Below, one piece after another: positions 2,788 through 24,403 of a stretch of 64,000 nt of DNA. The DNA is from a virus. Positions within the stretch are counted from its first letter, which is position 1. Each line of letters starts with the position of its first letter. The position numbers and the translations under genes were made by a program. The DNA lies in IMG/VR virus record IMGVR_UViG_3300027686_001029. The stretch is one strand, 5' to 3'. Below the pieces are notes generated by a model. The model worked only from the letters and a program-made list of their open reading frames with translations, made no database searches and was not told the DNA's origin.

Positions 2788-3003
2788 TTATTTGCATTTA
2801 GTAATAAATTCTAAGTAAGGAACATCTACGTTTTGTACGTTAACGCTCATTAGCTTAGGTTTCCATGCAAGAGGATCGCTTTTATTGTCTAAAATGTTTT
2901 CTATAATTTGGAGACTACGTTCCGAAAAATCTTCTACGTACCCTACTCTCTTTGATCTCCAATCTCCTTTTTTTTGTTTTTTCATAATTCTATTAATGTC
3001 CAT
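2788..3003 (-). CDS. Hypothetical protein
   Basis: ORF overlapping the polA stop, same strand as neighbours. Confidence 0.55.
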   Translation of the reverse strand: MDINRIMKKQKKGDWRSKRVGYVEDFSERSLQIIENILDNKSDPLAWKPKLMSVNVQNVDVPYLEFITKCK

Positions 3004-5395
3004 CTCTCCAATTATTAGAAATCTCTGGAGGTGCTTTTAAAGTTACTCCTGGTAGATGTGTAGTATTCTCCATAATCTCCTGTACTACTGGGGCAAACAT
3101 CTCTACATCTTTAGCATCACAGTTAATAATAAGTTGATCATGAACTTGTGCCTGTACTTTAGCATCTATTCCTAATTCTTTAGCCTTTAAGTTAACTTTT
3201 AATGCTGCTCTATTTACTACTGCTGCAGCAAGGGATTGTAATTGAAAGTTTAAACAGTTATTAAGTCCGTTACGGTAGTCTCTATAAGCTTGAGTTACTT
3301 GGTCTCTAGGAGAAGTAATCTTACCAGTTTTCATATCAGTTTTAACAGGTATCTGCATCTCTAAATCTTTTCTAAATCTCCAATCCATTAATCTATCACC
3401 TAATTTCTCATGAAGCCTCTTTACTTTAGGTAAATGACGTATCCTTCCTAAAAAGTTTTGAATACTACCGTGCTCTTTAACTTGTATTCTAGAGTTTTCT
3501 CTCCATTTAGCTAATCCTGGAAATCCGTCTAAGTATCCTTTAATTAGTCCTTCTGCAGTCTTTTGATCAACTCCTAAAGTCATCTTTAATGCATATGCTT
3601 CCATACCGTAAGCTACTCCTAGTGAATAAGCTTTTGCTTTATTACGAGCTAGTACATCTAACTTTTTTAAGTAGTTATCAGCTTTTTTATCAGCAGATAC
3701 ACCATTAGGAAATCTATCTGTCTGCTCATTCATCTTTTCAGTTTGAATAGCAACGTAAGAGTAGAAATCCCAACCATTAGCAAATATCTCTTGAAGTTTT
3801 TCATCTCCTGAAACTGATGCAAAGCAATGAGGTTCTAAAGATTCATAATCTGCATCAATAACCTTCCTACCTTCTCCAGCTATTAAGAAAGCTCTTACAA
3901 TATTTACATACTTCATAATAATAGGAGCATCTTCACCTTCTTCTAAAGGTTTAGGTAACTGTTGAGCATCTGATCCGTATCGACCAGATACAGTCCCGTT
4001 TTGCTTAAAGTAGAAATAGTATTTACCGTCTTCCTGACGGTCTCTAAACCTGTCTACGTAAGTAGATTTGATCTTAAGTAACTTATTATATATACGTAAG
4101 TTCTCAGCCCAGGTATAGTCTTTAGCTAGGGTCTCTACCATACTCATATCAAACTTATCCCTACCGGATTTAGTATTAGCTCCTGCAGTAATAGGTTTTA
4201 CTCCCATGTACTTAAAGACTATTTCACCTAAGTGCTTTTTAGATTGAATATTAATATACTCTCCATTATTTGATTCTTTCCATAGAGCCATTGAAATACG
4301 GTAACGTTCTACCTCTTCTATTAATTCTTCATTACCGGTCAATAGAAACTCTTTTACTACTCTTTCTTTATCCGTAGAAGGTTCAAAAGCTTCTATATTT
4401 TTTTGAGTCAGAGAGTATTTACCAGTTTTATCTGATTTAGGTAAAGGTATAGAGTATCTTTGAATAAGGCTCTGAGCCCAATTACCTTTATGGGATACAG
4501 GGTATGCATTGAGAGCTGTTCCCATCACCCATGTTTGAGCTTCGTCAGTATCTAATAAAGATTTCATTACTATCTCTTTATTAATTTTTAAATCTTCAGA
4601 TATAGTTTTATGAGTTTCTTCAATTAAGTCCATATCTAATTCAACACCGTGTGCTTCCATAGGAACAGTTACTTCCCTATAAACAGGCATTACTTCATCT
4701 TCGAAGAAGAACTTTTCCAAGCCCTCATCTCTAAGCTTATCCAAATATAAATTACAAATACGAAGGGTAAGGTCAGTATCAGCAGCAGCATATTTTGAAA
4801 GTATATCCAAATCAGCTTTATATATTTGAAAGCTTTCTTTTGTAACGGATCCTCCATTTTTCTTTATGCTTTCTTTTAGTTCTACTTGTTCTTCATTAGC
4901 AGCTTTTTCAACATCAAGCCCTAATGCCTCTTGGTTCATAATAGCAATAGATTTTAGACCAAAAGGATTACCAAAACCAAATGCACCTTCTTCATAAACT
5001 GTATGAACAAGTAATCCTGTATCAACCCATACGTCTGGTAATAAATCTATACCGTAGTAATTACTGATAAACTGGACATCAAAAGAAGCATTATGAAATA
5101 CTAACTTCTTTCCTTTAAGTAACTTTAATAAGTTTTTAGAAATAACCTCAGTAGAGGTACCTTTAATTTCTTGGAGCATAAGCTCTTCTCTATGGTAATC
5201 CCATACTAGAGTAGGTAGGTAAAAACCTACTCCTTCATCTCCTGATACTGACCATCCTATAATTTTATCCTTACGAGGATTAAGACCAGTAGTCTCTGTA
5301 TCTACTGCAATTGTATCTGAGTCAAGGATATGTTGGTGAAGTAATTCTAACGTTTCACTATCTTGAACTGTGTAATACTTTTTCTCTAACTTCAT
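2993..5395 (-). CDS. polA: Family A DNA polymerase with 3'-5' exonuclease domain
   Basis: Exo motifs DTETTG, FHNASFD, YAAADT; TVSGRY; motif A ADYESLEPH, motif B KAKAYSLGVAYG, motif C QVHDQL. Confidence 0.95.
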   Translation of the reverse strand: MKLEKKYYTVQDSETLELLHQHILDSDTIAVDTETTGLNPRKDKIIGWSVSGDEGVGFYLPTLVWDYHREELMLQEIKGTSTEVISKNLLKLLKGKKLVFHNASFDVQFISNYYGIDLLPDVWVDTGLLVHTVYEEGAFGFGNPFGLKSIAIMNQEALGLDVEKAANEEQVELKESIKKNGGSVTKESFQIYKADLDILSKYAAADTDLTLRICNLYLDKLRDEGLEKFFFEDEVMPVYREVTVPMEAHGVELDMDLIEETHKTISEDLKINKEIVMKSLLDTDEAQTWVMGTALNAYPVSHKGNWAQSLIQRYSIPLPKSDKTGKYSLTQKNIEAFEPSTDKERVVKEFLLTGNEELIEEVERYRISMALWKESNNGEYINIQSKKHLGEIVFKYMGVKPITAGANTKSGRDKFDMSMVETLAKDYTWAENLRIYNKLLKIKSTYVDRFRDRQEDGKYYFYFKQNGTVSGRYGSDAQQLPKPLEEGEDAPIIMKYVNIVRAFLIAGEGRKVIDADYESLEPHCFASVSGDEKLQEIFANGWDFYSYVAIQTEKMNEQTDRFPNGVSADKKADNYLKKLDVLARNKAKAYSLGVAYGMEAYALKMTLGVDQKTAEGLIKGYLDGFPGLAKWRENSRIQVKEHGSIQNFLGRIRHLPKVKRLHEKLGDRLMDWRFRKDLEMQIPVKTDMKTGKITSPRDQVTQAYRDYRNGLNNCLNFQLQSLAAAVVNRAALKVNLKAKELGIDAKVQAQVHDQLIINCDAKDVEMFAPVVQEIMENTTHLPGVTLKAPPEISNNWRDGH

Positions 5396-6095: not shown

Positions 6096-6364
6096 TAAAT
6101 TCCTTCCCCATAAAGGTCAAATAATTCAGGTTCTTTTTCTTCTACAATTTTTTCGTGTTCTATAATAGCATATAGTTTACCGTTGAGAGGTTCTAACCTA
6201 TAGTGCCCTTTAAATTTAGTTTTTCTCAAATATGCCGTTAATGCCGGAACTAATCCTTCAATAACAGTAGACTGGTCTCTTTCCAGAACCCAATTATCTC
6301 CAGGAGCTTTTCTTTTAGCGATTAATACGTTTTCTTCTTCTATAACTGTTTCTATATTGCTCAT
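6095..6364 (-). CDS. Hypothetical protein
   Basis: Tightly packed ORF in operon. Confidence 0.65.
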   Translation of the reverse strand: MSNIETVIEEENVLIAKRKAPGDNWVLERDQSTVIEGLVPALTAYLRKTKFKGHYRLEPLNGKLYAIIEHEKIVEEKEPELFDLYGEGI

Positions 6365-7185
6365 ACTACTGCTCTACCTTTTAATTCTAACCAATCCTTA
6401 TTCTCTCTTACTGTATCATTTAGTTCTAATACGCTTTCAAAAAAAATAGGGTCGATTCCTTTGCTTTTGTATAAATAGACTAAAGCGTTAAGATCTTTAG
6501 GTAAGCAATGTCCTCCAAAGCCTAACTCCCCATCAGGGCCTGGTACTGCTAGATGTGCTTTTCCAATACGTGGATCTAAAGTAGCATATTCAACAACTTT
6601 ATCGTAATCTAGATTTATAGCTTCACATAACCTGTATACTTCATTAGCAAAAGTAACTTTAGTTGCTAAAAAAGCATTAGTAAAGTACTTAACCATTTCA
6701 GCATGTGCTGCACCTGTTTTTACGATAGTAGCATTAGGAAATACTTTAACATATACTTGCTTAAGTAAAGTAGTAGAAGGTCTAGGACCTCCTAAAATAA
6801 CTCTAGTAGTATTTTTAAAGTCTTCTTCTGCTGATACTTCAGATAAAAATTCAGGATTAAATACGATACTCATATCTGAGTAAATTGAGTTTAATTCATC
6901 TGTGGTACCCGGTGGTACAGTAGACTTAATTACTATAGTTTCTCTATACCCCAAGAAATTAAGATCGTCTAATGCTTGTCTTAGTATATCGGTACTACAA
7001 GCTCCTGAAGATTCCATTGGGGTAGGTAAGCATAAAAATACTATTCCGCATTTTTGTACTATAATTTCTAAAGTAGAATTACACTTATCCTTATCTAGGT
7101 CATATGTAAATACTTCATAATAGCTTTTAAACTTTTTATAGATTGCATCACCTACAAAGCCTTGTCCTACAATTCCTATGTTCAT
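6361..7185 (-). CDS. ugd: UDP-glucose/GDP-mannose dehydrogenase family protein (short form)
   Basis: GIVGQGFVG Rossmann motif, IKSTVPPGTT, FNPEFL, AEMVKY, GFGGHCLPKD. Confidence 0.9.
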   Translation of the reverse strand: MNIGIVGQGFVGDAIYKKFKSYYEVFTYDLDKDKCNSTLEIIVQKCGIVFLCLPTPMESSGACSTDILRQALDDLNFLGYRETIVIKSTVPPGTTDELNSIYSDMSIVFNPEFLSEVSAEEDFKNTTRVILGGPRPSTTLLKQVYVKVFPNATIVKTGAAHAEMVKYFTNAFLATKVTFANEVYRLCEAINLDYDKVVEYATLDPRIGKAHLAVPGPDGELGFGGHCLPKDLNALVYLYKSKGIDPIFFESVLELNDTVRENKDWLELKGRAVV

Positions 7186-7188
7186 AAC

Positions 7189-8094
7189 TTATTGACGTAG
7201 AGTTTTTCTAATACAAAACATTGGGTTAGTAAAAAACTCTGGTATTAGCATTTGGTGGGTTGCTCTAATAGGGTTAATATCTATTCCTCCTCTGCGGGTA
7301 TACAGACAAGCAACCATTAATTGTTCTGGTTTGAATCTTTCTGTTAAGTGAGAATAAATCATTTCGCATATCTCTTCATGAAAGTGACTTACTGTTCTAT
7401 GACTAACTATGTATTTAGCAAGAGATTCTGCGGTAGGTACTTCATCTCCTTTGATAAAGATAAATATATCTCCCCAATCTGGTTGATCAGTTACTCTACA
7501 ATTAGAACGTAATAAATTTGATCGAACCTTAAGTTCTCGAGCATCAATAGAACCTTCTAACTGATTAGCATCTGATTTAAATGCTGTAAAATCGATTGCA
7601 TCTAAATTAGCTAATTCTCCAATTTCTTCGAATTCTTCAGAAAAAGACAAGGTTTCCATTTCAAAATCAGAAGAATAGAAACTAACTGTAGTTATAGTAT
7701 CAAGTAGTTCATCTAAATCTCTCTTTATTCTTGCTTCAATTCCTGCGATGCAGTCTGCTGCATTGTCACCTATCTTAGTCATATTAAATGAATTAAGATA
7801 AAGTTTAATCGATTTAGACTCAACGTGGTTTTCACTATCAGCCGGACATACTATTTTAACCATACCGGCAACAGGTTGACCTTTTGTAGTAATAGCAGAA
7901 ACTTCATAAGCATTCCATGTATCTACACCTACGAATTCCTTACCTGTTAATCCATATCCTTCTCGATTAAGATATCTTGGTATCTTAACTAAAAGTTCTG
8001 GAGAGTAAGTATCTTTATAACCTGCTCCGCCTACAGTTCCTAAATGTTTGGATGCAATATCCTTTACTTGTTCGTAATTTTTAACTTCTGACAT
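7189..8094 (-). CDS. queF: NADPH-dependent preQ0 reductase QueF (bimodular type)
   Basis: QueF motif ESKSIKLYL, RSNCRVTDQPDWG with catalytic Cys, FHEEICE, YTRRGGIDINP. Confidence 0.93.
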   Translation of the reverse strand: MSEVKNYEQVKDIASKHLGTVGGAGYKDTYSPELLVKIPRYLNREGYGLTGKEFVGVDTWNAYEVSAITTKGQPVAGMVKIVCPADSENHVESKSIKLYLNSFNMTKIGDNAADCIAGIEARIKRDLDELLDTITTVSFYSSDFEMETLSFSEEFEEIGELANLDAIDFTAFKSDANQLEGSIDARELKVRSNLLRSNCRVTDQPDWGDIFIFIKGDEVPTAESLAKYIVSHRTVSHFHEEICEMIYSHLTERFKPEQLMVACLYTRRGGIDINPIRATHQMLIPEFFTNPMFCIRKTLRQ

Positions 8095-8096
8095 AA

Positions 8097-8468
8097 TTAT
8101 CCTTTAAATATTTGTTTTTTACCACCTTCGTATTGATAAGCGTGGCCATTCTCTACCAGTAGTTTATTTAATGAGGTTTCTTCTCCGTCGATATCAATAA
8201 AAATCTCAGCAAGTATTCGACCGTACTTCCCTTTACCGTAAGATTGAATAACAAACTTACCATCATTCATCTCCATATATTTCTCAGTAAATTTAGAAGC
8301 TTCTATACCTTTAGCTTTCTCTTCTAAATTTCTAGTTCTCTTTTCCCAAGTATCAACTCCTTTAAATCTTAATCTGGCTCTAACCCAAGTATCAAATCCT
8401 AGATCGATCATTACATCTGCTGTATCACCATCAACTACTCTTAATAATTTTGCTCCGTATTTATACAT
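8097..8468 (-). CDS. Thermonuclease (SNase-like) family protein
   Basis: RVVDGDT, RLRFKGVDTWE, GKYGRILA, LVENGHA. Confidence 0.85.
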   Translation of the reverse strand: MYKYGAKLLRVVDGDTADVMIDLGFDTWVRARLRFKGVDTWEKRTRNLEEKAKGIEASKFTEKYMEMNDGKFVIQSYGKGKYGRILAEIFIDIDGEETSLNKLLVENGHAYQYEGGKKQIFKG

Positions 8469-8982
8469 TTATAAAATTTAATATTTGCTCTACTCTTTGC
8501 ATAGGAGAGCCAGTTATCGTCAAATAAGGTTGACGTACGTCTTCTAATACTGCTTTAAACTCTTCATCAATATCTACTCTCCACTTTTCATTTATACTTC
8601 TAACTCCATCATCTACAGAATCAAATTCTATAGGAAAATAAATATAATGAGTATACTCGTTTTTAATCCTATTCCAAGTAGCATCTATATATTTCCACGT
8701 CTCTTCTGATACGTTATCCATAAATCTTGTATATACTACAACATCCATAAAGCATCTATCGAGTACTTGATTATAAGGTTGTAATAAAGCTTCTAAATGA
8801 AAACAACTAATAGCTAATTGAGTAGCATCAGTTCCTTTTTCATTGATAGGAAAACCATAAGAACCTACCGTTCTAGTAGATTCGTTAACAAAGTCGTACT
8901 TTGGTAATTTATTCTTTAGTAATTCATACACAGTAGTCTTACCTGTACTACTAGCTCCTACTAACGCAATTCTCTTTGTCAT
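8461..8982 (-). CDS. P-loop nucleotide kinase-like protein (AAA_28/NadR-type)
   Basis: Walker A GASSTGKTT, LDRCFMD, DDGVRS. Confidence 0.75.
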   Translation of the reverse strand: MTKRIALVGASSTGKTTVYELLKNKLPKYDFVNESTRTVGSYGFPINEKGTDATQLAISCFHLEALLQPYNQVLDRCFMDVVVYTRFMDNVSEETWKYIDATWNRIKNEYTHYIYFPIEFDSVDDGVRSINEKWRVDIDEEFKAVLEDVRQPYLTITGSPMQRVEQILNFINV

Positions 8983-9000
8983 ACAACCTTTTTATTTAAT

Positions 9001-9032
9001 ACAATATACGAACTTTATTTTTTATTACCGAA
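9001..9032 (-). promoter_or_regulatory. Sigma-A-like promoter upstream of the kinase
   Basis: TTCG-N20-TATATTGT; the -33 element is imperfect. Confidence 0.5.
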
Positions 9033-9584
9033 TAATTCATTAGTAAATTCAATCCAAAGATATAGAGACCTATCTTTAAATACTTTCCACATCTCTTCTT
9101 CAGTTATACTAAATGCATTAAACCTAATTTCTTTTAGAACTTTTCCTTCATCTACTCCTTCTACTACTTTGTGTATTACACATCCCATAACTTCATGCTT
9201 AGCTTCAAAAGCTCTAATTTGAGGATCCTTTCCTTTTAATTCTGGGTAGACAGTTATTAGTCCTGGATGACCGTTAAATATGTTGAAGCTTTGAGTAACT
9301 TCAGAAGGTAGAATTCTCAGCCAACCGTGTAATGTAATAATCGCATCTGGAAAATACTGAAGTACGTCTAGATATTCATTCACTTTAGGTTTATTACTAA
9401 AGGTAAAATATCCTTTTTCTTCTATTCTAGGATCTATAGTTCTAGCATCATTAGGTCTCTCATTAGTAATAATACGGGATGGCCACTTACCTGTGCTTTC
9501 AGCAAGATCAGCTATTTCTGCTCCTGTTTGAGAGAAAAAAGCAATCCAGGTTTGTTTGCCAGATTTAATTTTTATATCTTTCAT
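9015..9584 (-). CDS. dpdN: PurN-like formyltransferase; candidate preQ1 formyltransferase (DpdN-like)
   Basis: FFSQTG, LHGWLRIL, FNGHPGL, GCVIHKV..GVDEG (N/H/D formyltransferase catalytic set); adjacent to a TGT-fold gene within the que cluster. Confidence 0.75.
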   Translation of the reverse strand: MKDIKIKSGKQTWIAFFSQTGAEIADLAESTGKWPSRIITNERPNDARTIDPRIEEKGYFTFSNKPKVNEYLDVLQYFPDAIITLHGWLRILPSEVTQSFNIFNGHPGLITVYPELKGKDPQIRAFEAKHEVMGCVIHKVVEGVDEGKVLKEIRFNAFSITEEEMWKVFKDRSLYLWIEFTNELFGNKK

Positions 9585-10399
9585 ATTCCTGCTATAGGTG
9601 TTGATCCATTAACGAACCACCTAAATTTCTGTATATTATTTAATACGGTGGGTATTTCTATATCGTCAATATCTGTGTTAATAAGTTCGAATAACTTCTG
9701 CGATTCTTTACTCCATAAGCCATCAGATCCGTAAGTTATGTCTTTTAATCCGTGTACTACAGGATTTGAAGTATCTAAAGAGTATATCCAACTGTAGTCT
9801 AAATGTTTATAGTACGAAAATTCCTGGGGAAGTGAACATCCTAATAAGTGATGAGGTTTATCTTTATTAATAACACCGTCTCTAAGTAAATCTCCAAGTA
9901 GCTTAACACGTCCTAGCATCCAACTAACGTATTTATTAGGATGAGGAAAAGACTCAGTATAATACGAATAATCAAAGGATATAGCAATCATATCACAAGG
10001 TGATAATTCATCTATAGCTTTATAACAGTCTTTAATTTCCTGATAAGTCTTACCTTGAACCACCCCTATACTCTTACCCGGTACATTATTATACTTTTTA
10101 AACCAGCTAGCCATTTGCGACATAGTTTTTTCAGCATTTTCTAAAGCATCTGGTACTATATACCATGTAGGTTTAAGCAATTGTACCCAGTTAGAAAACT
10201 TATCAGCATCAAAGGCTTCTTCTAATTCAAAAATAGAGTTGTCTAATATTACTTCTCTTCCTTTTCTTACTGCTTTTTCAAACTGCCTTAAGTATTCTGG
10301 ATCTTCTTCTAGTAAATGTACTAATGCATAGTCATAATCAGTTAGTCTTTGAACTTCATCAAAAATACTATTCGGAGATTCATGAGCAATCTTAATCAT
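9581..10399 (-). CDS. dpdA: TGT-fold deazaguanine transglycosylase-like protein (DpdA3-like)
   Basis: LDNSIFE, IVPD, GVVQG, HHLLG, SLDTSNP match the TGT motif order; no CxCxxC zinc site; located in the que cluster. Confidence 0.75.
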   Translation of the reverse strand: MIKIAHESPNSIFDEVQRLTDYDYALVHLLEEDPEYLRQFEKAVRKGREVILDNSIFELEEAFDADKFSNWVQLLKPTWYIVPDALENAEKTMSQMASWFKKYNNVPGKSIGVVQGKTYQEIKDCYKAIDELSPCDMIAISFDYSYYTESFPHPNKYVSWMLGRVKLLGDLLRDGVINKDKPHHLLGCSLPQEFSYYKHLDYSWIYSLDTSNPVVHGLKDITYGSDGLWSKESQKLFELINTDIDDIEIPTVLNNIQKFRWFVNGSTPIAGI

Positions 10400-10577
10400 C
10401 TTTATTAATTTCCTTTAAAGCGTTATTTAATAATTCTATTGAGCTATCTACTTTTAAAGCAGCATTATTAAGCTTAGCAGTATAATTGCTTACTTCTTTA
10501 ATAGCTTTTTCAGCTATTTCTACTGGGATCATTTCTACTCCTTCTACTACTACGATATTTTCTTTCCATGTATTCAT
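10392..10577 (-). CDS. Hypothetical protein
   Basis: Overlapping start/stop packing. Confidence 0.6.
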   Translation of the reverse strand: MNTWKENIVVVEGVEMIPVEIAEKAIKEVSNYTAKLNNAALKVDSSIELLNNALKEINKDD

Positions 10578-11146
10578 ATCCCTAAGTGTTGCTGTGGTCT
10601 AGTTTTAACAATTTCATCATCTGTAAAGAATTGTTTAAGGTCCGGTCTGAAGTAGTTAGTGCTTTTCATTACTTTTCTATCTCTAGTACGGTAGACAATA
10701 TACCGTCCTTCCTCAATCTTTTCAAAATGACAGGCCTCACCTTGTTCCTTACTTCTTTGGCGGACGGTCTGTATGGCTTCTTTTTCAGTTTCACAAGCTT
10801 TTGACATATTAGAGGCTTGTACTTCTTGATATGCTGGCCATATCTTGTTCTTAAGGCCATGTAGCATAGTACCGTTCCCAAGGGAAACATAAGTAATATC
10901 GCACAAAGCATCCAAAATTTCCACAATGTCTCCTCTTTCGCAAGCTTCTTTATATTCTTGGAGCTCTTCAAGGATAAAGTCGTAAACAAATCTCCATTCT
11001 TTTTCACTAGGGATAGTTGGTTCATAGTTATTAGGTTTGTTAAACGTTTTGTTAAACTCTTCTACTTCATCTACGAAAGGAACTCCGTTAACCCATACGG
11101 GTAATACTTTTTCTTCTACTTCAAATAATGATAGTTGCTCACCCAT
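10574..11146 (-). CDS. MazG-like / all-alpha NTP pyrophosphohydrolase (PRA-PH/DR2231 type)
   Basis: VEEF, ILEELQEY, EILDALCDITYV, EVQASNMSK. Confidence 0.85.
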   Translation of the reverse strand: MGEQLSLFEVEEKVLPVWVNGVPFVDEVEEFNKTFNKPNNYEPTIPSEKEWRFVYDFILEELQEYKEACERGDIVEILDALCDITYVSLGNGTMLHGLKNKIWPAYQEVQASNMSKACETEKEAIQTVRQRSKEQGEACHFEKIEEGRYIVYRTRDRKVMKSTNYFRPDLKQFFTDDEIVKTRPQQHLGI

Positions 11147-11147
11147 A

Positions 11148-11348
11148 TTAGATTACTTTTAAAATTCTTGATTCTGTAAGGCTTATGATTCTGAAATCTC
11201 TTTCTCCTTCGTTTTCTAAGTACTTATAAACTTTAGATTCAGCTTCAGTACCGCCCATAGCGTCAACCAAATAAATTTCTTTTACTTTTTGAATACGACC
11301 TCTATCGTTTTCTCTTTCAAACTGGGTAGTAACTTGCCAATATGTCAT
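11148..11348 (-). CDS. DUF4494-like small protein
   Basis: W.....FE....G..QKVKE.YLVDA...TEAE pattern, recalled from Bacteroidota proteins. Confidence 0.6.
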   Translation of the reverse strand: MTYWQVTTQFERENDRGRIQKVKEIYLVDAMGGTEAESKVYKYLENEGERDFRIISLTESRILKVI

Positions 11349-11370
11349 AATAATGCTTTTTTAATTTAAT

Positions 11371-11401
11371 TTAATATACGATTAATTTTACTTCTATACA
11401 A
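11371..11401 (-). promoter_or_regulatory. Bacteroidota-type sigma-A promoter
   Basis: TTG-N20-TATATTAA. Confidence 0.7.
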
Positions 11402-11770
11402 CTATTCTCTATTATAGTCATCTTCATATCTGATTATGTCTGATTCATCAAATATACCTGCATTACTATGCTGCACTTCAATAAAAATCATATCTTTGTT
11501 ATCCTGTACGTTATTAATATTTCTTATTCTATGTTTAGCTCCTTCTGGTATATAAACAGTATTCTTCTCCGTCAAAACACTATCTGAGCCATCTAAAGTA
11601 TATCCTGCCATTCCCTGTACTATAGTCCAAGTCTCTGATCTATGTTTATGAGATTGATAGGATAGTTGTCCGCCAGGTTTAACTGTAATCATTTTTACCT
11701 TACAAAAAGGACTATCAAGTAAAACTTGATACTCCCCCCAAGGTCTTATATCATGTTCTAATGTCTGCAT
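11402..11770 (-). CDS. Cupin, mannose-6-phosphate isomerase type II C-terminal-like
   Basis: RPWGEY, VKPGGQLSYQSHKHRSETW, HRIRN, IEVQ, ESDIIRYEDDYNR. Confidence 0.88.
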   Translation of the reverse strand: MQTLEHDIRPWGEYQVLLDSPFCKVKMITVKPGGQLSYQSHKHRSETWTIVQGMAGYTLDGSDSVLTEKNTVYIPEGAKHRIRNINNVQDNKDMIFIEVQHSNAGIFDESDIIRYEDDYNRE

Positions 11771-12471
11771 ATACTTGCTAATTCTATATTCTTATAAAAC
11801 TCTGCTTTTGCAGAATCCTCATCTAAAAATGCTCCTGTTAACTTAGCTGTCTGCATTGAAGCTCCTTGATGCTTTACTCCTCTACAGCTTACACAGTTAT
11901 GAGTAGCATTAATTTGAACTGCTACTCCTAAATTACCATCACAAATTTTATTAACAGCATTATGTATGGCAACTGTTAATTGTTCTTGAATGGCTCCTCT
12001 TCTTCCAAATTGTTCTACTATTCTATTTAATTTGGATAATCCAACAACCTTCCCAGACTCTGAAGCAATATAGGCTATGCTAACAGTCCCACCTATTGTT
12101 TGGTGGTGGTGACTACACATTGACGTTACAGGTATATTAGACTCTTGTACGATTCCGTCGTAGCCGTCGCTAGGGAATGCTGTAACTCGGTCTAAAGGTT
12201 CAAATCTACCTTTCCATAGATCATTAACGTATGCTTTAGCTACTCTCATAGGAGTATCAGAAGAGTTGGGATCGTTTTCCCAGTCAGTTCCAAGAGCGGT
12301 TAAGAAGTCACCAAATGCTGTTGCTGCATTAGTAATAATCTCTTGTTTCTCTTCTGATGATAACCTTGCTTCAGGTCCTTCGGTTAGTTGTTTCTTTGCT
12401 AATTGACTGGATATACCATTAGCGAATCCAGCTTGAACTAATTCTGTTCCTTCTATAAACTTCTTTGCCAT
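11758..12471 (-). CDS. folE: GTP cyclohydrolase I
   Basis: DTPMRVAKAY, SMCSHHH, VVGLSKLNR, IQEQLT, HNCVSCRG. Confidence 0.95.
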   Translation of the reverse strand: MAKKFIEGTELVQAGFANGISSQLAKKQLTEGPEARLSSEEKQEIITNAATAFGDFLTALGTDWENDPNSSDTPMRVAKAYVNDLWKGRFEPLDRVTAFPSDGYDGIVQESNIPVTSMCSHHHQTIGGTVSIAYIASESGKVVGLSKLNRIVEQFGRRGAIQEQLTVAIHNAVNKICDGNLGVAVQINATHNCVSCRGVKHQGASMQTAKLTGAFLDEDSAKAEFYKNIELASICRH

Positions 12472-12491
12472 TCTTATAACTTATTTATACT

Positions 12492-12523
12492 TAAATATAC
12501 GATTTTATTTTGTAGTATCCAAA
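12492..12523 (-). promoter_or_regulatory. Bacteroidota-type sigma-A promoter upstream of folE
   Basis: TTTG-N20-TATATTTA. Confidence 0.75.
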
Positions 12524-12909
12524 TAACCTTGTATGGTTTTTGAATCTTTTTTTTCCCAAGGGTAAACTATCCATTCAGGTCCTATATGCTGTGCAAAATA
12601 ATCTGGTTTAAATGTAGATTGTTTTTTATAATGAAGTGTTGCATATAAAGGTTGGGGGAACTTATACTGAAACTGTTTTAAAGTTTCTCCTGTATCAGCT
12701 ATATCATCAAGTACTAATAGGCTTGGATAATGATTGCTTGGGTTTTCCATATACTCAATTCCGAACCTATGTGAGTAGAGTATTGCTAAAATCGTACCTC
12801 CTCTTGGTACTCCTGTAACGTATCCTACCTGTCCTTTTGTCTGTTGGTATATATTATCTAGAAGGGAGTTTATATCTTCCCACGTTAAAAAAACTTTCTT
12901 TACGCTCAT
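12505..12909 (-). CDS. Type I phosphoribosyltransferase (Gpt-like purine PRTase); start refined to MSVKK
   Basis: GVPRGG, PRPP loop LVLDDIADTGETL, WIVYPWE. Confidence 0.88.
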   Translation of the reverse strand: MSVKKVFLTWEDINSLLDNIYQQTKGQVGYVTGVPRGGTILAILYSHRFGIEYMENPSNHYPSLLVLDDIADTGETLKQFQYKFPQPLYATLHYKKQSTFKPDYFAQHIGPEWIVYPWEKKDSKTIQGYLDTTK

Positions 12910-13040
12910 ACAATATTTGTTGTCCAAAACTGGTTATCGATTATATAACTCTGATCTTTACTTTTCCAGTATAATTCTCTTACTTTACTTCCTAATTCTT
13001 GATCGTTAGGATTTTCTTCTACTAATTTATTAAGGTTCAT
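12906..13040 (-). CDS. Small hypothetical protein, 44 aa, not in ORF track
   Basis: MNLNKLVEENPNDQELGSKVRELYWK...; fills the gap and has an ATGA overlap with the PRTase gene. Confidence 0.6.
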   Translation of the reverse strand: MNLNKLVEENPNDQELGSKVRELYWKSKDQSYIIDNQFWTTNIV

Positions 13041-13341
13041 AATTTAATCCAAAAAATTTATAATTGTTTTTAACTGCTTCTAATTCTCCTGCTTCTATTG
13101 CATCTTCTTCTGTTTCGTATATAGCCTCAACTGGGCATTCTGGAATACAGGCTCCGCAATCTATACATTCGTCTGGGTTAATATATAGGCTTTTGCCTAT
13201 CAATTGCTCTTTAGTCATATTCGCAACTTCTGCTCCTGCACCTTCAATATCTATAGGACCATGTATACAATCTACAGGACAAACAGCAACACAAGCTGTA
13301 TCACATGTACTAATACAGGGACTTCCTATAATGTAGCTCAT
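13030..13341 (-). CDS. 4Fe-4S dicluster ferredoxin
   Basis: CISTCDTACVAVCPVDCI and CIDCGACIPECP. Confidence 0.93.
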   Translation of the reverse strand: MSYIIGSPCISTCDTACVAVCPVDCIHGPIDIEGAGAEVANMTKEQLIGKSLYINPDECIDCGACIPECPVEAIYETEEDAIEAGELEAVKNNYKFFGLNYEP

Positions 13342-13574
13342 AAAGTAACTTTTTTCATAAATTTGTTTACAGCATCTGTAGAGGATGTTCCGGTTGCTAT
13401 ATCCTCTGTAACTATTAGAGCACCATATAGGTTAGACATTATCTCCCCAATCACGTCTAGTTCTTCACTAGTAACTTTTCTTGCTTCTGAGATGTCTTCT
13501 AATACCTTTAAAGTAATATTAATTTCATCTTCGTTAGAAGTTTTTACGATTTGTTTAATTACTTGTAGTTTCAT
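13338..13574 (-). CDS. Conserved Bacteroidota-like protein (DUF6952-like)
   Basis: MKL.VIK...EELDVIGE..SNLYGAL.V pattern, recalled from Bacteroidota proteins. Confidence 0.6.
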   Translation of the reverse strand: MKLQVIKQIVKTSNEDEINITLKVLEDISEARKVTSEELDVIGEIMSNLYGALIVTEDIATGTSSTDAVNKFMKKVTL

Positions 13575-15293: not shown

Positions 15294-15324
15294 ACAATAT
15301 AAGAAGAAAAAGGGTAGTAAACAA
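15294..15324 (-). promoter_or_regulatory. Sigma-A promoter overlapping a terminator
   Basis: TTG-N20-TATATTGT. Confidence 0.6.
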
Positions 15325-15331
15325 CTACCCC
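15301..15331 (-). terminator. Intrinsic terminator
   Basis: Stem gggtagt/actaccc followed by TTTTTCTTCTT on the minus strand. Confidence 0.8.
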
Positions 15332-15341
15332 TTAGTTTATT

Positions 15342-16235
15342 TTAATATAAAGCATTCCAAGTTGAACCGTTATAAAAATACGGTTTAATTGGACTACTTG
15401 ATGATACTGCGAATGCTCCGGCTGCTAATCCTGCAGATGGAAGAGGATGTTGTGGCTGTAATGTTAATACGTTAGATGCACTTACGAAAAGTGATGCTGA
15501 TAGTGGGTATACAGCATTAATATGACCATTATCCTGTATAGTTAGTCTAACAGTTGATCCATATGCTCCTGTTTCTTGAGTTGCAAATGTTATCTTAGCT
15601 CCTGAAGAGCTTACTGCTGATTTTGTTACAGTTCCTGTAATTTGTACAGGTTCAGAATAATCTGTCCAAGTTAGAGCGTTACCTGTTCTTGTAGAACCTG
15701 AGTTTACTACTCTTCCTGCTATTCTAAATATATTATCGCCTACTAGTGCGGGTGATTCAGCTCCTGGTACACCTCTTGATTTTATAAATACAAAGTTTCC
15801 TGCTGACTGGTCAGTTGAAGCTTGGTCAATCCAAATCTCAGATCTATAATTTTTTAACCCAATTTTAGCCGGGTACCAGTGATGTTGTCCTATCTCTACA
15901 GATCCTGTAATAGATAAACTACCTGTGTGGTTTATTTTTCCTCTAATTAACTGCTCACCTATAAACGTATTACTACTAGTTAGTGCGTATTTCGCATTAT
16001 TAACATAAGATGCGGTAGTTGCGGTAGTTGCTTTTGTAGATACAGATGATGATAGTGCAGTAACAATAGAAGTTAGCCCAGATCCGTCTCCAACAAATGA
16101 TCCTGAGAATGATCCTGTAAGGTTATTGAAAGATGCAGAAAGTGCATTTCCAAGTCCATCTTCAAATCTATTATTAGTCCACTGTACTACTTTTCCGTAG
16201 GTATCCTTTATTTTACTTCCTGTTAAATTTGCCAT
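15342..16235 (-). CDS. Putative virion fibre/decoration protein
   Basis: Ser/Gly/Thr-rich with GSFSGSF repeats like the tail fibre at 61831; C-terminal YFYNGSTW; preceded by the TATTTAT motif. Confidence 0.6.
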   Translation of the reverse strand: MANLTGSKIKDTYGKVVQWTNNRFEDGLGNALSASFNNLTGSFSGSFVGDGSGLTSIVTALSSSVSTKATTATTASYVNNAKYALTSSNTFIGEQLIRGKINHTGSLSITGSVEIGQHHWYPAKIGLKNYRSEIWIDQASTDQSAGNFVFIKSRGVPGAESPALVGDNIFRIAGRVVNSGSTRTGNALTWTDYSEPVQITGTVTKSAVSSSGAKITFATQETGAYGSTVRLTIQDNGHINAVYPLSASLFVSASNVLTLQPQHPLPSAGLAAGAFAVSSSSPIKPYFYNGSTWNALY

Positions 16236-16378: not shown

Positions 16379-17006
16379 ATATTTGTTTTTTAGTGAAAAA
16401 CTTAGGTTTTATATTATTTAGTAGTAAAGAAAAAGCTATTCCCATACCTTCACCATTGCCCCTATGGTTATAAATAGACTTCTCAAACATACTATTGTAC
16501 TCTATTATAGGTTTAAGTACCTCTATATACTTAGTAACATTTCTCAACCTACTGTCGTAAGGGATGTAAAATACGGTTTCTAGTAATGGTCTTAATAAAT
16601 TTATAGGGAAATCTGCAAGTTTTAAGTAGTCTGTTAATTTGTCCCAATAGGAACCATTTATATCTGTATCTTTCCATATAGAATTGCCGTAGTCCCAGTA
16701 CCCTACAAAACAATAATCGTCACTTCCTTTAAAATGCTGGTGGAAGTCTGGTGTCATTGCATGTATTTTATTAGCATCAACAAAAAGTACTCCTTGTTTT
16801 TCTTTTAACGCTAATTGAAATGCATATATCAACTTATCGTAGTATGAAAATATAATATTATTATAGGTTGTAGTATCGTATTCCTTGAACCGTTCGGGAT
16901 CATCGGTTAACACTCTAATATCGTATATTTTTCTATCTAATATCTTTAATAGTTTTTCAGCTGATTCTGTATACGGTTTATTTATTGCAGTTGTAGCTAA
17001 AATCAT
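16341..17006 (-). CDS. Hypothetical protein, possible GT-A-like fold
   Basis: YYDK...VLFVDAN resembles the K...hhhDxD pattern of the paralogues at 19697, 58957 and 59898. Confidence 0.5.
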   Translation of the reverse strand: MILATTAINKPYTESAEKLLKILDRKIYDIRVLTDDPERFKEYDTTTYNNIIFSYYDKLIYAFQLALKEKQGVLFVDANKIHAMTPDFHQHFKGSDDYCFVGYWDYGNSIWKDTDINGSYWDKLTDYLKLADFPINLLRPLLETVFYIPYDSRLRNVTKYIEVLKPIIEYNSMFEKSIYNHRGNGEGMGIAFSLLLNNIKPKFFTKKQIYELDSEDKSILC

Positions 17007-18664
17007 GTTTTTCTGATTAAAAAGTTACCTATAACTAAAAAATTAATTTTAGAAGATATAAACCTCTCTATTGCCTGTTTTGGAGTCATCGTAATAGTTT
17101 GGTCTTTTAGGTTAAAAGATGTATTAAGTACTACTGCTTTATTTGATAACCTACCTACTTGTTTAATAAGGTCATAATATCTTTTATTTTGAGCTTGTGT
17201 TACAGTGTGTACTCTACAGCTACCGTCTATATGTGTTGCTGCAGGTAGGTATTTAGTTTTAGCTTGTACTACTTGATTCATATAGGGAATATTCTCTTTC
17301 ACGTGGAACCACATGGAGGCCTCTTCCTCTATAACAGACGGAGCAAAGGGTCTAAATCCTTCTCGTTCTTTAATAATAAGGTTGAGTCTTTGTCTCATTT
17401 CTGGATCTGATGGAGAGGCTAGGATACTTCTATTACCTAAAGCTCTAGCTCCAAATTCCATTCTACCTTGGAACCATGCTACTATATTTTGATTATTAAT
17501 TAACTCAGCAGTTTTTTGAATTAATTTTGAATCAGATAGTTTAAATGCCTGAATATGCTCTTTATAGTTCTGTATCTCTTTGGAAATTTCTTTATTACTG
17601 TATTCTGGTCCTAAGAATGGATTTGAATTTTCTTCCCTTTTTAACTCCGTTGAAATATTACTAAAGCAAGCTCCAATTGCTGATCCAGCATCTGATGGAG
17701 CATTAGGGATATGGATAGACTTAAAGTACTTATAAGCAAGTGTATTAGCTACACCATTATACGCACAGCCTCCTCCTAAACATAAGTTATTTGATTTAGT
17801 TAAGTATTTTGTTCTTTCTACAAGTTTTAAAAACTGTATCTCATATATTTTTTGTAATGCTGCTGCTAAATCTTTATGTTCTTGAGTAACTTTTTCTTCA
17901 GGTAATCTAGGAGGTAGATCTAAAAGTGAAGCTAGTTTTTTATTAAACATAATTTTATCTGAGTATTCCCATGTAAAGTACTTCTGTTTAATATAGAATT
18001 TATTAGTAGTATTTTCAAATACACTAGCTAACTTCTCTTTATACCTGCTTGGGTCTCCATAAGGTGCTAATCCCATAACTTTATACTCGCCTTCATTAGG
18101 TTTAAAGCCTAGAAACGAAGTAATAGTTGAGTAAAACATACCTAGTGAATTAGGGAAATCAATTGAAACTTTCTTTTCTATTCTATTACCTATACCTAAT
18201 GATACAGTAGCTGTTTCCCATTCTCCTACTCCATCAATAGTTAAAATTGCTGAATCAATATAAGGAGAGGTATAGTAACTATAAGCAGCATGAGAAGCAT
18301 GGTGAGGAGTATATACAATCTCTCCGGTGAATCCCATATTCTGTAAAAGCAACTTAATATCGTGTATTTTTTGCTCTTTAAGAAACTTTCGTCTTTGAAA
18401 ATACGTCCTAAAAAATTTCTTATTAAACGTAGTAAGTACTCTATCTTTTTTAATAATTGGGTCTTCATACCAGCATACTTGATCTATATCTTTTATGGTT
18501 AGTCCTTCTTCTTCTAAACAGAAGTTTATAGCATTAATTGGGAAAGATAAGTCATGTTTAATTTCAGTAAATCTTTCTTCCTCTACTGCTACTTTGACTT
18601 TTCCGTCAATTAGTATACAAGCTGCAGCGTCGTGATAAAATGCGGATATTCCTAATTGCTTCAT
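17003..18664 (-). CDS. Carbamoyltransferase (NodU/CmcH/TobZ family)
   Basis: SAFYHDAAA, EEERF, HHASHA, DGVGE, GGCAYN, EFGARALGNRS, RPFAPS, LNTSFN. Confidence 0.95.
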   Translation of the reverse strand: MKQLGISAFYHDAAACILIDGKVKVAVEEERFTEIKHDLSFPINAINFCLEEEGLTIKDIDQVCWYEDPIIKKDRVLTTFNKKFFRTYFQRRKFLKEQKIHDIKLLLQNMGFTGEIVYTPHHASHAAYSYYTSPYIDSAILTIDGVGEWETATVSLGIGNRIEKKVSIDFPNSLGMFYSTITSFLGFKPNEGEYKVMGLAPYGDPSRYKEKLASVFENTTNKFYIKQKYFTWEYSDKIMFNKKLASLLDLPPRLPEEKVTQEHKDLAAALQKIYEIQFLKLVERTKYLTKSNNLCLGGGCAYNGVANTLAYKYFKSIHIPNAPSDAGSAIGACFSNISTELKREENSNPFLGPEYSNKEISKEIQNYKEHIQAFKLSDSKLIQKTAELINNQNIVAWFQGRMEFGARALGNRSILASPSDPEMRQRLNLIIKEREGFRPFAPSVIEEEASMWFHVKENIPYMNQVVQAKTKYLPAATHIDGSCRVHTVTQAQNKRYYDLIKQVGRLSNKAVVLNTSFNLKDQTITMTPKQAIERFISSKINFLVIGNFLIRKT

Positions 18665-20501: not shown

Positions 20502-21317
20502 TTAAGAATAACCTAATTCTGCAGCAGTACTGTAGTCGACTAGTATTTTTTCTACATGTGCTTTCGCAACATTATAATCAACCGGTCCAGTTTCGTTCTC
20601 GTACTGTACAGGGTCATCCACACCGAGTGCGATAAAAGCTTCAATCCTTTCAACAGATGATGCTGATTTGTAATCGCTATTACCGCTAGGATAGGGCTTA
20701 TAAGAAGTATTAGTACGTTTGTACACTTCATTAAAAACAATTCCGAGCTCTTCAACCAATTGTTGTCCATCTTTTAATATTCCAAATTTGTCTGTTTCTA
20801 AATAAGGTGTAAAATACCCTACCTTATCTGCTTCCCAATTACCTAATCTAAAGGCATTGTCATCTGCATCTCTAAACTCTTGTCTACAGTCTGGATATAC
20901 TGCATGATCACCTGCATGTATACCTAATGCAATATCTGTATTATTACCATTAGCCATTGCTTCTGATAGAGCTACTGCTTGTACTAACGAAGCAAATATT
21001 TTGTTTCTATTAGGTACTACTGTAGCTTTCATGTTATCCTGTTCATAATGACCTTCAGGTACATCTGCTCCTCCTTCAGTAAGTGCTGAATTTAGTAAGT
21101 TTACTAATCCGTCTAGTTTAATTACCTGGTACTTGATACCAAAATCTTTCTCATTTAGGTAATCTACTAACGATTGTGCTCTTTCAAGCTCTACTTTATG
21201 CTTTTGACCGTAATCGAAAGATATTGCAGTTACATTGTCATACTCTGATAAACATCTGAGTAGTAAAGTAGAGGAATCCATCCCTCCCGATAAGGATATT
21301 ACAACATTTTTTGCCAT
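20502..21317 (-). CDS. queC: 7-cyano-7-deazaguanine synthase (variant lacking the zinc-site Cys)
   Basis: SLSGGMDSS, FDYGQKH, VPNRN, GIHAGD..YPDCR. Confidence 0.92.
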   Translation of the reverse strand: MAKNVVISLSGGMDSSTLLLRCLSEYDNVTAISFDYGQKHKVELERAQSLVDYLNEKDFGIKYQVIKLDGLVNLLNSALTEGGADVPEGHYEQDNMKATVVPNRNKIFASLVQAVALSEAMANGNNTDIALGIHAGDHAVYPDCRQEFRDADDNAFRLGNWEADKVGYFTPYLETDKFGILKDGQQLVEELGIVFNEVYKRTNTSYKPYPSGNSDYKSASSVERIEAFIALGVDDPVQYENETGPVDYNVAKAHVEKILVDYSTAAELGYS

Positions 21318-24395: not shown

Positions 24396-24403
24396 AATTT
24401 ATT

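Follow-up and report, generated by a model that had tools for sequence, protein, structure and literature searches.

Is the modified guanine of DpdA3 phages swapped into finished DNA, or could it be built on free nucleotides before the DNA is copied? We considered this question for a stretch of 64,000 nucleotides of viral DNA (the window), in which three genes for nucleotide-handling proteins, namely a phosphoribosyltransferase (PRTase), a MazG-like NTP pyrophosphatase and a P-loop kinase, lie among deazaguanine genes. A preliminary description had read these three as one nucleotide-pool arm of guanine replacement.

The deazaguanine cluster of the window

This region holds the central genes of a guanine-replacement cluster of the DpdA3, formyl-preQ1 (fdPreQ1) type in an immuto-like phage. 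The cluster repeats, in diverged form, the published fdPreQ1 system of phage vB_FspM_immuto_2-6A, and the source phage is an uncultured relative of this Flavobacterium phage. The relevant genes are the following (identities refer to the immuto proteins):

2993-5395, minus strand: family A DNA polymerase with 3'-5' exonuclease (PF00476, 5.9e-54), downstream in the same gene direction
7189-8094, minus strand: QueF, bimodular type (PF14819 and PF14489), preQ0 to preQ1
8097-8468, minus strand: staphylococcal-nuclease-like protein (SNase; PF00565, 2e-10), accessory, in 16/80 loci
8461-8982, minus strand: AAA_28 P-loop nucleoside/nucleotide kinase (PF13521, 60.9 bits, cut-off 27), a conserved DpdA3 partner; 66.9% identity
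9015-9584, minus strand: DpdN, PurN-like formyltransferase, preQ1 to formyl-preQ1 (PF00551, 8e-12); 47% identity
9581-10399, minus strand: DpdA3, TGT-superfamily guanine transglycosylase; 73.6% identity to immuto DpdA
10392-10577, minus strand: 61-aa ORF overlapping the MazG-like and DpdA3 genes; recognisable homologue in 5/80 loci
10574-11146, minus strand: MazG-like all-alpha NTP pyrophosphohydrolase, PRA-PH type (PF01503, 43.4 bits, cut-off 21.3; PHROG 671, 3e-30); 73.8% identity
11148-11348, minus strand: DUF4494-like short ORF, 66 aa (PF14902, 1.5e-10, profile positions 1-62 of 139), also in immuto
11402-11770, minus strand: cupin / mannose-6-P isomerase C-terminal-like protein (PF01050, 8.5e-26), accessory, in 24/80 related loci
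11758-12471, minus strand: FolE, the GTP cyclohydrolase I that starts preQ synthesis (PF01227, 3.6e-42); 80% identity
12505-12909, minus strand: Gpt-like type I PRTase with 6-oxopurine PRTase relatives and the PRPP motif LLVLDDIADTGETL; 41.9% identity
13593-14372, minus strand: QueE; 80% identity
14359-14862, minus strand: QueD; 72% identity
20502-21317, minus strand: QueC (PF06508, 6.5e-40)
22680-25381, minus strand: ribonucleotide reductase (RNR), large and small subunits (PF02867, PF00317, PF00268)

All three nucleotide genes are intact minus-strand ORFs and share one minus-strand operon with FolE, DpdA3, DpdN and QueF. The order is PRTase, FolE, cupin, DUF4494 fragment, MazG-like, 61-aa ORF, DpdA3, DpdN, kinase, SNase and QueF, with overlaps of 4-8 nt linking MazG, the 61-aa ORF, DpdA3 and DpdN. 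The interleaving of nucleotide and deazaguanine genes noted in the preliminary description is thereby borne out by the ORF positions, and gene order from PRTase to QueF is identical in immuto_2-6A. The two phages differ in that their single DNA-level match spans 421 bases of the MazG-like gene (79% identity), and in that the cupin, SNase and a UDP-glucose-dehydrogenase-like gene are extra in the window. The cupin gene is confined to part of the clade. Pfam and PHROG profile searches with the 61-aa ORF returned no family match.

Pfam, PHROG and solved-structure matches also upheld the family assignments made earlier for the PRTase, MazG-like protein and kinase. The kinase matches PHROG 2107 'thymidylate kinase' (3e-23), has the Walker A motif GASSTGKT, and conserves Q55, D75-R76, D80, Y84 and a DDGxRS segment among its homologues. 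Its structural model (pLDDT 92.7) is predicted to have a nucleoside/nucleotide-kinase fold: the best match was NadR ribosylnicotinamide kinase (TM 0.80), further matches were deoxyadenosine, deoxyguanosine, deoxycytidine and thymidylate kinases, and neither a polynucleotide kinase nor a ParB-like ATPase was among the matches listed. In the MazG-like protein, the acidic residues E60/E61/E64 and D79/D83 were invariant in 15 homologues and probably form a metal-binding motif. The protein had no significant sequence match to solved structures; it weakly resembles DR2231 (E 0.56), which we take to be a dUTP-specific MazG-like protein. The PRTase ORF covers 12505-12927 when counted from a TTG, with the ATG at 12909 as the likely start. 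It scored 19.4 bits against PF00156, under the cut-off of 26.3, and matched PHROG 8995 'phosphoribosyl transferase' at 1.8e-18; among solved structures, 6-oxopurine PRTases are closest to it (1vdm, 2e-7; Sulfolobus GpT-1/2; E. coli Gpt, 8e-4). The model of DpdA3 (pLDDT 95.5) matched TGT best (E 3e-7, probability 1.0), and the protein has the conserved motifs LDNSxFEL and DTSNPV.

Gene neighbours of DpdA3

We surveyed 162 loci from 25 DpdA3 lineages (proteins grouped at ~65% identity), 108 of these loci belonging to one immuto-like lineage, with 38 classic-DpdA loci as controls. An AAA_28 kinase within six genes was the commonest neighbour of DpdA3, found in 19 of the 25 lineages, as compared with QueF in 17, FolE in 16, DpdN in 15 and QueE in 14; none was present in the 38 control loci. 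Co-occurrence with dpdA3, which the preliminary description had put forward as a check, is thus positive for the kinase. A small N-terminal Walker-A ORF lay within three genes of DpdA3 in 18/25 lineages and 128/162 loci, versus one control locus (1/38, anywhere in the flank). This corresponds to Fisher p = 2e-19 by locus and p = 0.005 by lineage, the controls being taken as ~8 lineages (a rough estimate). The fetched flanks of six lineages contained no AAA_28 kinase; four of the contigs, which we checked, are 9-34% complete fragments.

The linkage extends to distant phages. In Campylobacter phage CP220, the que genes are scattered across the genome, yet the gene immediately after DpdA3 (gp056) still encodes a homologous kinase, gp057 (30% identity, 6e-13). 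Elsewhere other families occupy the slot: i) a T4 gp1-type dNMP kinase (PF21448, 1.7e-17) directly after the DpdA3-like gene of Aeromonas phage Ahp1, ii) an AAA_18 P-loop protein directly before DpdA3 in Cellulophaga phage phiST, and iii) phrog_761 'thymidylate kinase' (1e-15) directly before the DpdA3-like gene of Bacillus phage BSTP12. In Brevundimonas phage MaInes, an annotated dNMP kinase shares a gene block with FolE, PRTase, DNA polymerase and a DpdA3-like gene. DpdN is fused to DpdA3 in P0165 and P0243, and on two contigs a kinase with a GNAT-like domain stands in DpdN's place. These fusions and replacements link exchange, tailoring and phosphorylation.

Like CP220 (dADG), phiST (dDG) is another DpdA3 phage with complete G replacement. 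In both, a P-loop kinase-like gene flanks DpdA3 and the PRTase family is present, as in the window; they differ from it in their final bases and in the absence of DpdN. Between FolE and DpdA3, phiST has a MazG gene, next to FolE, and then two further genes, but this MazG is of the PF03819 type and the P-loop protein is AAA_18, not AAA_28. CP220 has an HD and P-loop fusion instead of MazG.

As for the kinase family as a whole, homologues occur in 118 phage records, many without a DpdA3-like gene. Homologues of ~30% identity occur in 89 Streptomyces phage records, and the family is also present in records of Bacteroides phages; the two checked, Samisti12 (Streptomyces) and DAC23 (Bacteroides), lacked both DpdA3 and QueC, and in a tree that is itself unsupported their kinases fall within the DpdA3-linked clade. 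These homologues weaken the case for a kinase specific to DpdA3 phages. The MazG-like family, present in 78/80 close loci, is a general phage family: it was found in 294 phage records, as compared with only 26 records that have a DpdA3-like gene, so that its role as a specific part of the arm was not sustained. Some NTP-cleaving enzyme (PF01503 MazG, PF03819 MazG or DCD/dUTPase-like) was nevertheless found in the flanks of 16/25 DpdA3 lineages versus 1/38 control loci.

Where the modified base may be made

In known pre-replicative systems, namely the Z-genome (PurZ/MazZ/DatZ) and T4 hmC (gp42, gp1 dNMP kinase, gp56 dCTPase), a canonical dNTP is cleaved to dNMP, the base is remade on the monophosphate, and the product re-enters the pool through a kinase. 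A model of the same logic can be drawn for the window. According to it, the MazG-like enzyme would convert dGTP to dGMP, lowering the competing dGTP pool and supplying the acceptor. DpdA3, a minimal TGT-fold transglycosylase, would exchange guanine for preQ1 on the free deoxyguanosine nucleotide, or possibly nucleoside; DpdN would add a formyl group to the aminomethyl group; the AAA_28 kinase would phosphorylate the product, which host or phage kinases would carry to the triphosphate; and phage PolA would incorporate it. The Gpt-like PRTase would act off this route, turning released guanine via GMP into GTP, on which the neighbouring FolE acts. Were a deoxynucleotide the substrate of DpdA3, the reduction step by RNR proposed earlier would be needless. 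The T4 parallel includes the gp1-family kinase beside the Ahp1 gene; the difference is that the base would be changed by TGT-fold transglycosylation, not by synthesis on the existing base. Nucleoside 2'-deoxyribosyltransferases exchange bases on free deoxynucleosides, but DpdA3 has the TGT fold, not the NDT fold. The analysis shows which genes and families are present, their folds and conserved motifs, and how the genes are ordered, fused and found together; from this we infer every substrate, whether formylation or phosphorylation comes first, and a timing before replication. In our judgement there is an even chance that base exchange by DpdA3 takes place on a free (deoxy)guanosine nucleotide or nucleoside and that the resulting product is phosphorylated by the kinase.

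To our knowledge, the characterised TGT/DpdA enzymes all have polynucleotides as substrates, and a single paper treats DpdA3 (Cui et al. 2023, PMC10516641). It reports that DpdA3 phages replace all G, with every G of immuto becoming fdPreQ1, while classic DpdA modifies only 0.1-30% of G and the bacterial Dpd system <0.1%. Attempts to get DpdA3 working on DNA in E. coli failed, and ADG nucleoside was seen in cytoplasm from cells infected with CP220 (Cui et al. 2023). The complete replacement, the lack of activity in E. coli and the cytoplasmic nucleoside favour exchange on free nucleotides. Post-replicative exchange was proposed there for all DpdA subfamilies, and so for immuto; kinase, PRTase and NTP pyrophosphatase were left undiscussed (no occurrence of 'kinase' or 'PRTase', one of 'pyrophosph'). 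The preliminary description is supported in that the cluster has a nucleotide-level component on which this paper is silent.

If the published proposal holds, DpdA3 would swap every G in replicated DNA for preQ1, DpdN would formylate in DNA or on the free base, and the MazG-like enzyme would serve pool housekeeping. The P-loop protein would then use ATP to assist DpdA3, either with a function analogous to that of DpdB or as a polynucleotide kinase for end healing; or else, together with the PRTase, it would boost the flow from guanine via GMP to GTP for FolE, a supply role that the position of the PRTase beside FolE suits. The TGT fold of DpdA3 speaks for exchange in DNA, as do CP220 gp055, directly upstream of DpdA3, with its HD-Pnk end-healing architecture, and the ATP-dependent DNA ligase that phiST encodes at a distance of three annotated genes from DpdA3. 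Bacterial DpdA, likewise a TGT-superfamily transglycosylase that inserts 7-deazaguanine, requires its ATPase partner DpdB and the hydrolysis of ATP (PMC10164549), and because of this precedent a conserved P-loop partner need not be a metabolic kinase. However, DpdB is a ParB-like ATPase, whereas the partner in the window has a predicted nucleoside/nucleotide-kinase fold. Its place is taken in Ahp1 by a dNMP kinase, in the dispersed CP220 cluster the kinase keeps with DpdA3 and not with FolE or PRTase, and the classic-DpdA controls have no such partner. A dGTP-cleaving enzyme beside DpdA3 would moreover be counter-productive if DNA were first made with dGTP. Post-replicative exchange is in our judgement the less likely of the two.

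We consider improbable a route in which the PRTase joins free preQ1 or preQ0 to PRPP to give the ribonucleotide, the diphosphate made from it by the kinase is reduced by RNR, and the product is incorporated by PolA, with only the patching of residual G left to DpdA3. PRTases acting on 7-deazaguanines are known from toyocamycin and tubercidin biosynthesis, where ToyH and TubE make 7-deazapurine nucleotides from free base and PRPP; the PRTase of the window groups with 6-oxopurine PRTases. In favour of this route, genes for PRTase, kinase and RNR all lie near que genes, and every inspected context of the PRTase family (55 phage records) was a DpdA-encoding phage or lay beside folE/queD. Against it, the PRTase was in the fetched flanks of only 8/25 DpdA3 lineages, its steady neighbour is FolE and not the kinase or DpdA3, and the strong linkage of the latter two would be left unexplained. 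The same family occurs in 16/38 classic-DpdA control loci, there too next to folE, and between queD and folE in the Queuovirinae phage PaMx25. Because the PRTase travels with FolE in classic-DpdA loci too, it more likely serves guanine salvage feeding FolE, and the base-to-nucleotide step of complete replacement once assigned to it is unlikely. The PRTase, MazG-like and kinase genes thus fail to behave as a single arm.

That they are ordinary nucleotide-metabolism genes of the replication module, beside que genes by inherited synteny, would suit the wide MazG-like and kinase families and the dominance of one lineage in the survey, but is highly improbable, given that kinase adjacency recurs across lineages with only 24-45% DpdA3 identity and in phages of Bacteroidota, Campylobacter, Aeromonas, Bacillus and Brevundimonas, with different kinase families in the slot, and is absent from the controls.

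We therefore return to the exchange on free nucleotides. Because a nucleotide-kinase gene adjoins DpdA3 in most lineages sampled, the modified G of these phages may be built on free nucleotides before the DNA is copied and not swapped into finished DNA, a reading that contradicts the published post-replicative proposal.

Gene order around DpdA3

The window is AT-rich (GC about 33%) and nearly every gene lies on the minus strand. A single long string of minus-strand genes spans the region from 15 kb to 3 kb, in the order QueD, QueE, DUF6952, ferredoxin, PRTase, FolE, cupin, a DUF4494 fragment and the MazG-like gene, followed by a 61-aa ORF, DpdA3, DpdN, the P-loop kinase, SNase, QueF, a UDP-glucose-dehydrogenase-like gene, two small ORFs and PolA. 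Overlaps of 4-8 nt among the MazG-like gene, the 61-aa ORF, DpdA3 and DpdN indicate that these genes form one operon. The features discussed here are as follows.

Main features of the que/DpdA3 region
12505-12909, minus strand: PRTase
10574-11146, minus strand: MazG-like gene
9581-10399, minus strand: DpdA3
9015-9584, minus strand: DpdN
8461-8982, minus strand: P-loop kinase
20502-21317, further upstream of the string: QueC
22680-25381, further upstream of the string: RNR

The preliminary description had noted three nucleotide-handling genes (PRTase, kinase and MazG-like hydrolase) around DpdA3 and DpdN. All three are intact and each carries the motifs of its own family, which confirms this observation.

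The same gene order was found in the Flavobacterium-infecting phage vB_FspM_immuto_2-6A (immuto), with 42-80% protein identity and almost no DNA identity to the window. In immuto, all G is replaced by formyl-preQ1, and it was for the transglycosylase and the formyltransferase of this phage that the names DpdA3 and DpdN were introduced (Cui, Hutinet et al., NAR 2023, PMC10516641). Relative to immuto, the window contains accessory insertions, all on the minus strand: a UDP-glucose/GDP-mannose dehydrogenase-like protein lacking the start of its NAD domain (6361-7185), an SNase-like nuclease (8097-8468), a cupin (11402-11770), and ferredoxin plus DUF6952 adjoining QueE (13030-13574). Between QueD and QueC (17003-19704, minus strand), a NodU/CmcH-type carbamoyltransferase (PF02543 and PF16861, ~1e-61) and a radical SAM protein are encoded, which might serve further tailoring of the base or belong to a separate pathway. 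Of the terminator-like hairpins in this region, the strongest (15309-15333, minus strand) has 10 pairs with a T run after them. It is located immediately downstream of a 297-aa ORF without family match (15342-16235) and is the probable upstream limit of the que/DpdA3 operon. A general promoter/terminator scan was uninformative, with 42 promoter-like sites found versus 50 expected.

DpdA3 and its neighbouring kinase

The window DpdA3 belongs to the DpdA3 subfamily by homology, sharing 73.6% identity with the immuto protein and 41-42% with the group of Campylobacter phage CP220. Immuto gp065, CP220 gp056 and CGPG_00065 of Cellulophaga phage phiST were taken as founding members, the last of them being matched by the DpdA3 family HMM at 9e-27. 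The structural model (pLDDT 95.5) is a compact TGT-like TIM-barrel, for which Foldseek ranked TGT of Z. mobilis first (E 3e-7, probability 1.0, TM ~0.6). D53 (in LDNSxFEL) is invariant and D209 (in DTSNPV) nearly so; by motif resemblance, they may correspond to D102 and D280 of TGT, its catalytic Asp pair (general acid/base and nucleophile). Neither isoelectric point and net charge (median pI 5.5 versus 5.6) nor the CxCxxC Zn motif, missing from DpdA3 and from DpdA of phage PaMx25 as well, discriminated DpdA3 from classic DpdA. The family is large, comprising 4098 clusters at 90% identity or 1540 at 50% identity (E up to 1e-3), and was present in at least 570 IMG/VR stretches. The IMG/VR scans called for an alignment as query, since those with the single representative proteins P0132 and P0137 gave 0 and 1 loci, respectively. 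Two representative clusters (P0165 and P0243, 447 aa each) proved to be single-chain fusions, with DpdA3 at residues 1-268 and the formyltransferase at ~270-445. DpdN itself is a single-domain formyltransferase of the PurN type, and PurN acts, according to the textbooks, on a small ribonucleotide.

To see which genes accompany DpdA3, 3996 ORFs flanking it in 162 loci were clustered without recourse to annotation, and the loci were grouped into 25 lineages by DpdA3 identity (~65%). The commonest neighbour within six genes was the AAA_28 kinase, present in 19 lineages, followed by QueF (17), FolE and QueC (16 each), DpdN (15), QueE (14) and QueD (12). The usual order of the core was DpdA3, DpdN (where present), kinase and QueF. 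The 38 loci around classic DpdA (PaMx25/Queuovirinae type), which served as a control, contained neither the kinase nor either type of MazG; a DCD-like gene and a small Walker-A ORF were each found once and PRTase 16 times. Co-occurrence with DpdA3, which the preliminary description had put forward as a test of its proposal, thus gave a positive answer for the kinase. With a family-independent criterion (ORFs of 110-260 aa with an N-terminal GxxxxGK[ST]), a hit lay within three genes of DpdA3 in 128/162 loci (18 lineages), versus one of the 38 control loci even when the whole flank was considered. As for the lineages without kinase, whole-contig searches were uninformative, the contigs being 9-34% complete. 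Four neighbour clusters (c25, c291, c70 and c95) had no match in PHROGs. Taken together, the coupling between kinase and DpdA3 is well supported and very probably real.

The genes found in this position are not always of the same family. In CP220, where the que genes are dispersed (QueD, ~64 kb; QueC, ~101 kb; PRTase, ~164 kb), DpdA3 (gp056) still has a homologous kinase (gp057) immediately after it, and an HD plus P-loop protein (gp055) before it. In phiST, the order is QueD, QueE, FolE, MazG of the PF03819 type, one ORF, an AAA_18 P-loop protein and DpdA3. In Aeromonas phage Ahp1, a T4 gp1-type dNMP kinase and a DCD/dUTPase-like gene come after a DpdA3-like gene. In Bacillus phage BSTP12, the DpdA3-like gene lies between a member of a 'thymidylate kinase' PHROG and PolA, and in Brevundimonas phage MaInes such a gene is accompanied by Pol, RNR, FolE, PRTase and a gene whose annotation reads dNMP kinase. 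That several types of P-loop kinase occupy the same slot is the pattern of a required activity rather than of inherited synteny.

Several of these loci deserve comment in their own right. In CP220 gp055 (L002:7862-8893), immediately upstream of DpdA3, an HD phosphohydrolase domain is joined to a P-loop domain resembling polynucleotide kinase (AAA_33, phrog_505). HD-Pnk end-healing enzymes are built in this way, but the protein could equally represent a nucleotidase-kinase pair. BSTP12_038 (L172:4896-5684), located in a Gat-QueC/QueD/FolE cluster, carries the annotation NadR, while in sister phages its counterparts are labelled polynucleotide kinase or integrase; in fact, it is DpdA3-like (profile E 3e-26). 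The MaInes ORF (locus L211) is a distant DpdA3 relative (E 6.5e-10), and the annotated dNMP kinase adjoins FolE there. On two immuto-like contigs without DpdN (L013:6123-7079, on a contig shared with L132, and L015:10331-11287), DpdA3 is directly followed by a 318-aa AAA_28 kinase with a C-terminal GNAT-like domain ([HR]KGKGLGSR; Pfam Acetyltransf_10, E 0.002), which may indicate an acetyl-preQ1 variant of the modification. Streptomyces phage Samisti12 (L167) and 88 further Streptomyces phage records encode an AAA_28 kinase ~30% identical to that of the window; in Samisti12 it shares a replication module with a PF03819-type MazG, and the phage has neither QueC nor DpdA3. A search for longer proteins containing the kinase returned none, which carries little weight, and none of eight long DpdA3 representatives had a Walker A motif or matched the kinase HMM.

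The kinase of the window is a member of the nucleoside/nucleotide kinases, matching PF13521 with 60.9 bits and containing GxxxxGKT and a conserved DDGxRS segment. Its AlphaFold model (pLDDT 92.7) was closest to NadR ribosylnicotinamide kinase (TM 0.80), followed by deoxyadenosine, deoxyguanosine and deoxycytidine kinases, Drosophila dNK, YorR and thymidylate kinases. Since nucleoside kinases rank highest among these matches, the enzyme may have a nucleoside as acceptor instead of a monophosphate. Residues Q55, R76, D80, Y84, D125 and R128 are invariant and, judging by their spacing rather than by superposition, would occupy the acceptor-binding and lid positions of dNK/TMPK enzymes. Neither polynucleotide kinase nor ParB-like ATPase was among the fold matches listed. 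The kinase has no ParB-type Pfam match and does not belong with DpdB, the ParB-like ATPase that partners bacterial DpdA and is defined by a ParB/SspE-like NTPase domain; nor does it match PF21448 (DNMK), the T4 gp1 dNMP kinase family, which instead adjoins the DpdA3-like gene of Ahp1.

The MazG-like gene and the PRTase

The MazG-like protein belongs to the all-alpha NTP pyrophosphohydrolases (MazG/HisE), scoring 43.4 bits against PF01503 (cut-off 21.3), and its E60, E61, E64, D79 and D83 are invariant among 15 homologues. As regards kinship with MazZ, the (d)GTP-specific pyrophosphohydrolase of Z-genome phages, neither single-sequence nor profile searches of solved structures gave a significant match (best E 0.13-0.27); the sole hint of a solved relative was DR2231 (E 0.56), which we take to be a dUTPase. 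This family is generic: it was found in 294 phage records, compared with only 26 phage records that have a DpdA3-like gene, and just four of the 25 lineages have it near DpdA3. An NTP-cleaving enzyme of some kind was present in the flanks of 16 lineages.

The PRTase carries the PRPP-binding motif LLVLDDIADTGETL and was assigned to the type I 6-oxopurine (Gpt-like) PRTases, with 1vdm (2e-7), 4trb (4e-7) and E. coli Gpt (8e-4) as solved relatives, its PF00156 score of 19.4 being under the gathering score of 26.3. The family occurs in 55 phage records, and every context inspected was either a DpdA-encoding phage or a position beside folE/queD. In Queuovirinae with classic DpdA, the PRTase lies between queD and folE. 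Adjacency of FolE and PRTase also recurs outside the immuto clade, in MaInes (L211) and in Pseudomonas phage PaMx25 (L170). Because the PRTase is also found in phages with classic DpdA, in which 0.1-30% of G is modified (PMC10516641), it is not a good choice for the step from base to nucleotide in a complete replacement. The route from PRTase to RNR is the least supported part of the earlier proposal. The simplest reading is that the PRTase salvages guanine into the pathway's own precursor: FolE is its constant neighbour, and exchange would free one guanine while preQ1 costs one GTP.

The level at which guanine is exchanged

To our knowledge, no viruses other than DpdA3 phages have a 7-deazaguanine in place of every G. 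Complete replacement in virion DNA has been demonstrated only for immuto, phiST (dDG for all G) and CP220 (dADG for all G), and a post-replicative route for DpdA3 was offered as a proposal only; the terms 'kinase' and 'phosphoribosyl' do not occur in that paper (PMC10516641). In the literature that we searched, no later paper dealt with DpdA3 or with a route at the nucleotide level.

We give about an even chance to a pre-replicative pathway, which is the best single explanation of both the kinase-DpdA3 coupling and the recurrence of NTP-cleaving enzymes. It also fits three published points: replacement is 100%, DpdA3 failed in an E. coli DNA assay, and the ADG nucleoside was detected in infected cells (PMC10516641). 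Counting against it, the AAA_28 kinase family also exists without DpdA3, in phages of Streptomyces and Bacteroides. The main rival is exchange at the DNA level by DpdA3 assisted by an ATP-using helper, for which DpdB provides a real precedent (PMC10164549) and to which the resemblance of CP220 gp055 to end-healing HD-Pnk would also be suited.

As for the pre-replicative pathway, we tentatively propose a specific form of it, which we consider possible though slightly on the doubtful side: DpdA3 would be a TGT-fold exchanger acting on free deoxyguanosine mononucleotide or nucleoside, so that 7-deazaguanine replaces guanine before replication. An NTP pyrophosphatase would act first, followed by DpdA3, the formyl- or acyltransferase, the dedicated kinase and finally PolA. 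The guanine freed by DpdA3 would be salvaged via the PRTase back to GTP, the substrate of FolE, and the guanine loop would thereby be closed.

If exchange does take place on free nucleotides, this would represent a new substrate class for the TGT superfamily, and 7-deazaguanine would join hmC, hmU and Z as a rewriting of the genome at the level of the nucleotide pool. The combination of NTP pyrophosphatase, DpdA3, tailoring enzyme and kinase would then constitute a route to modified dGTP analogues.
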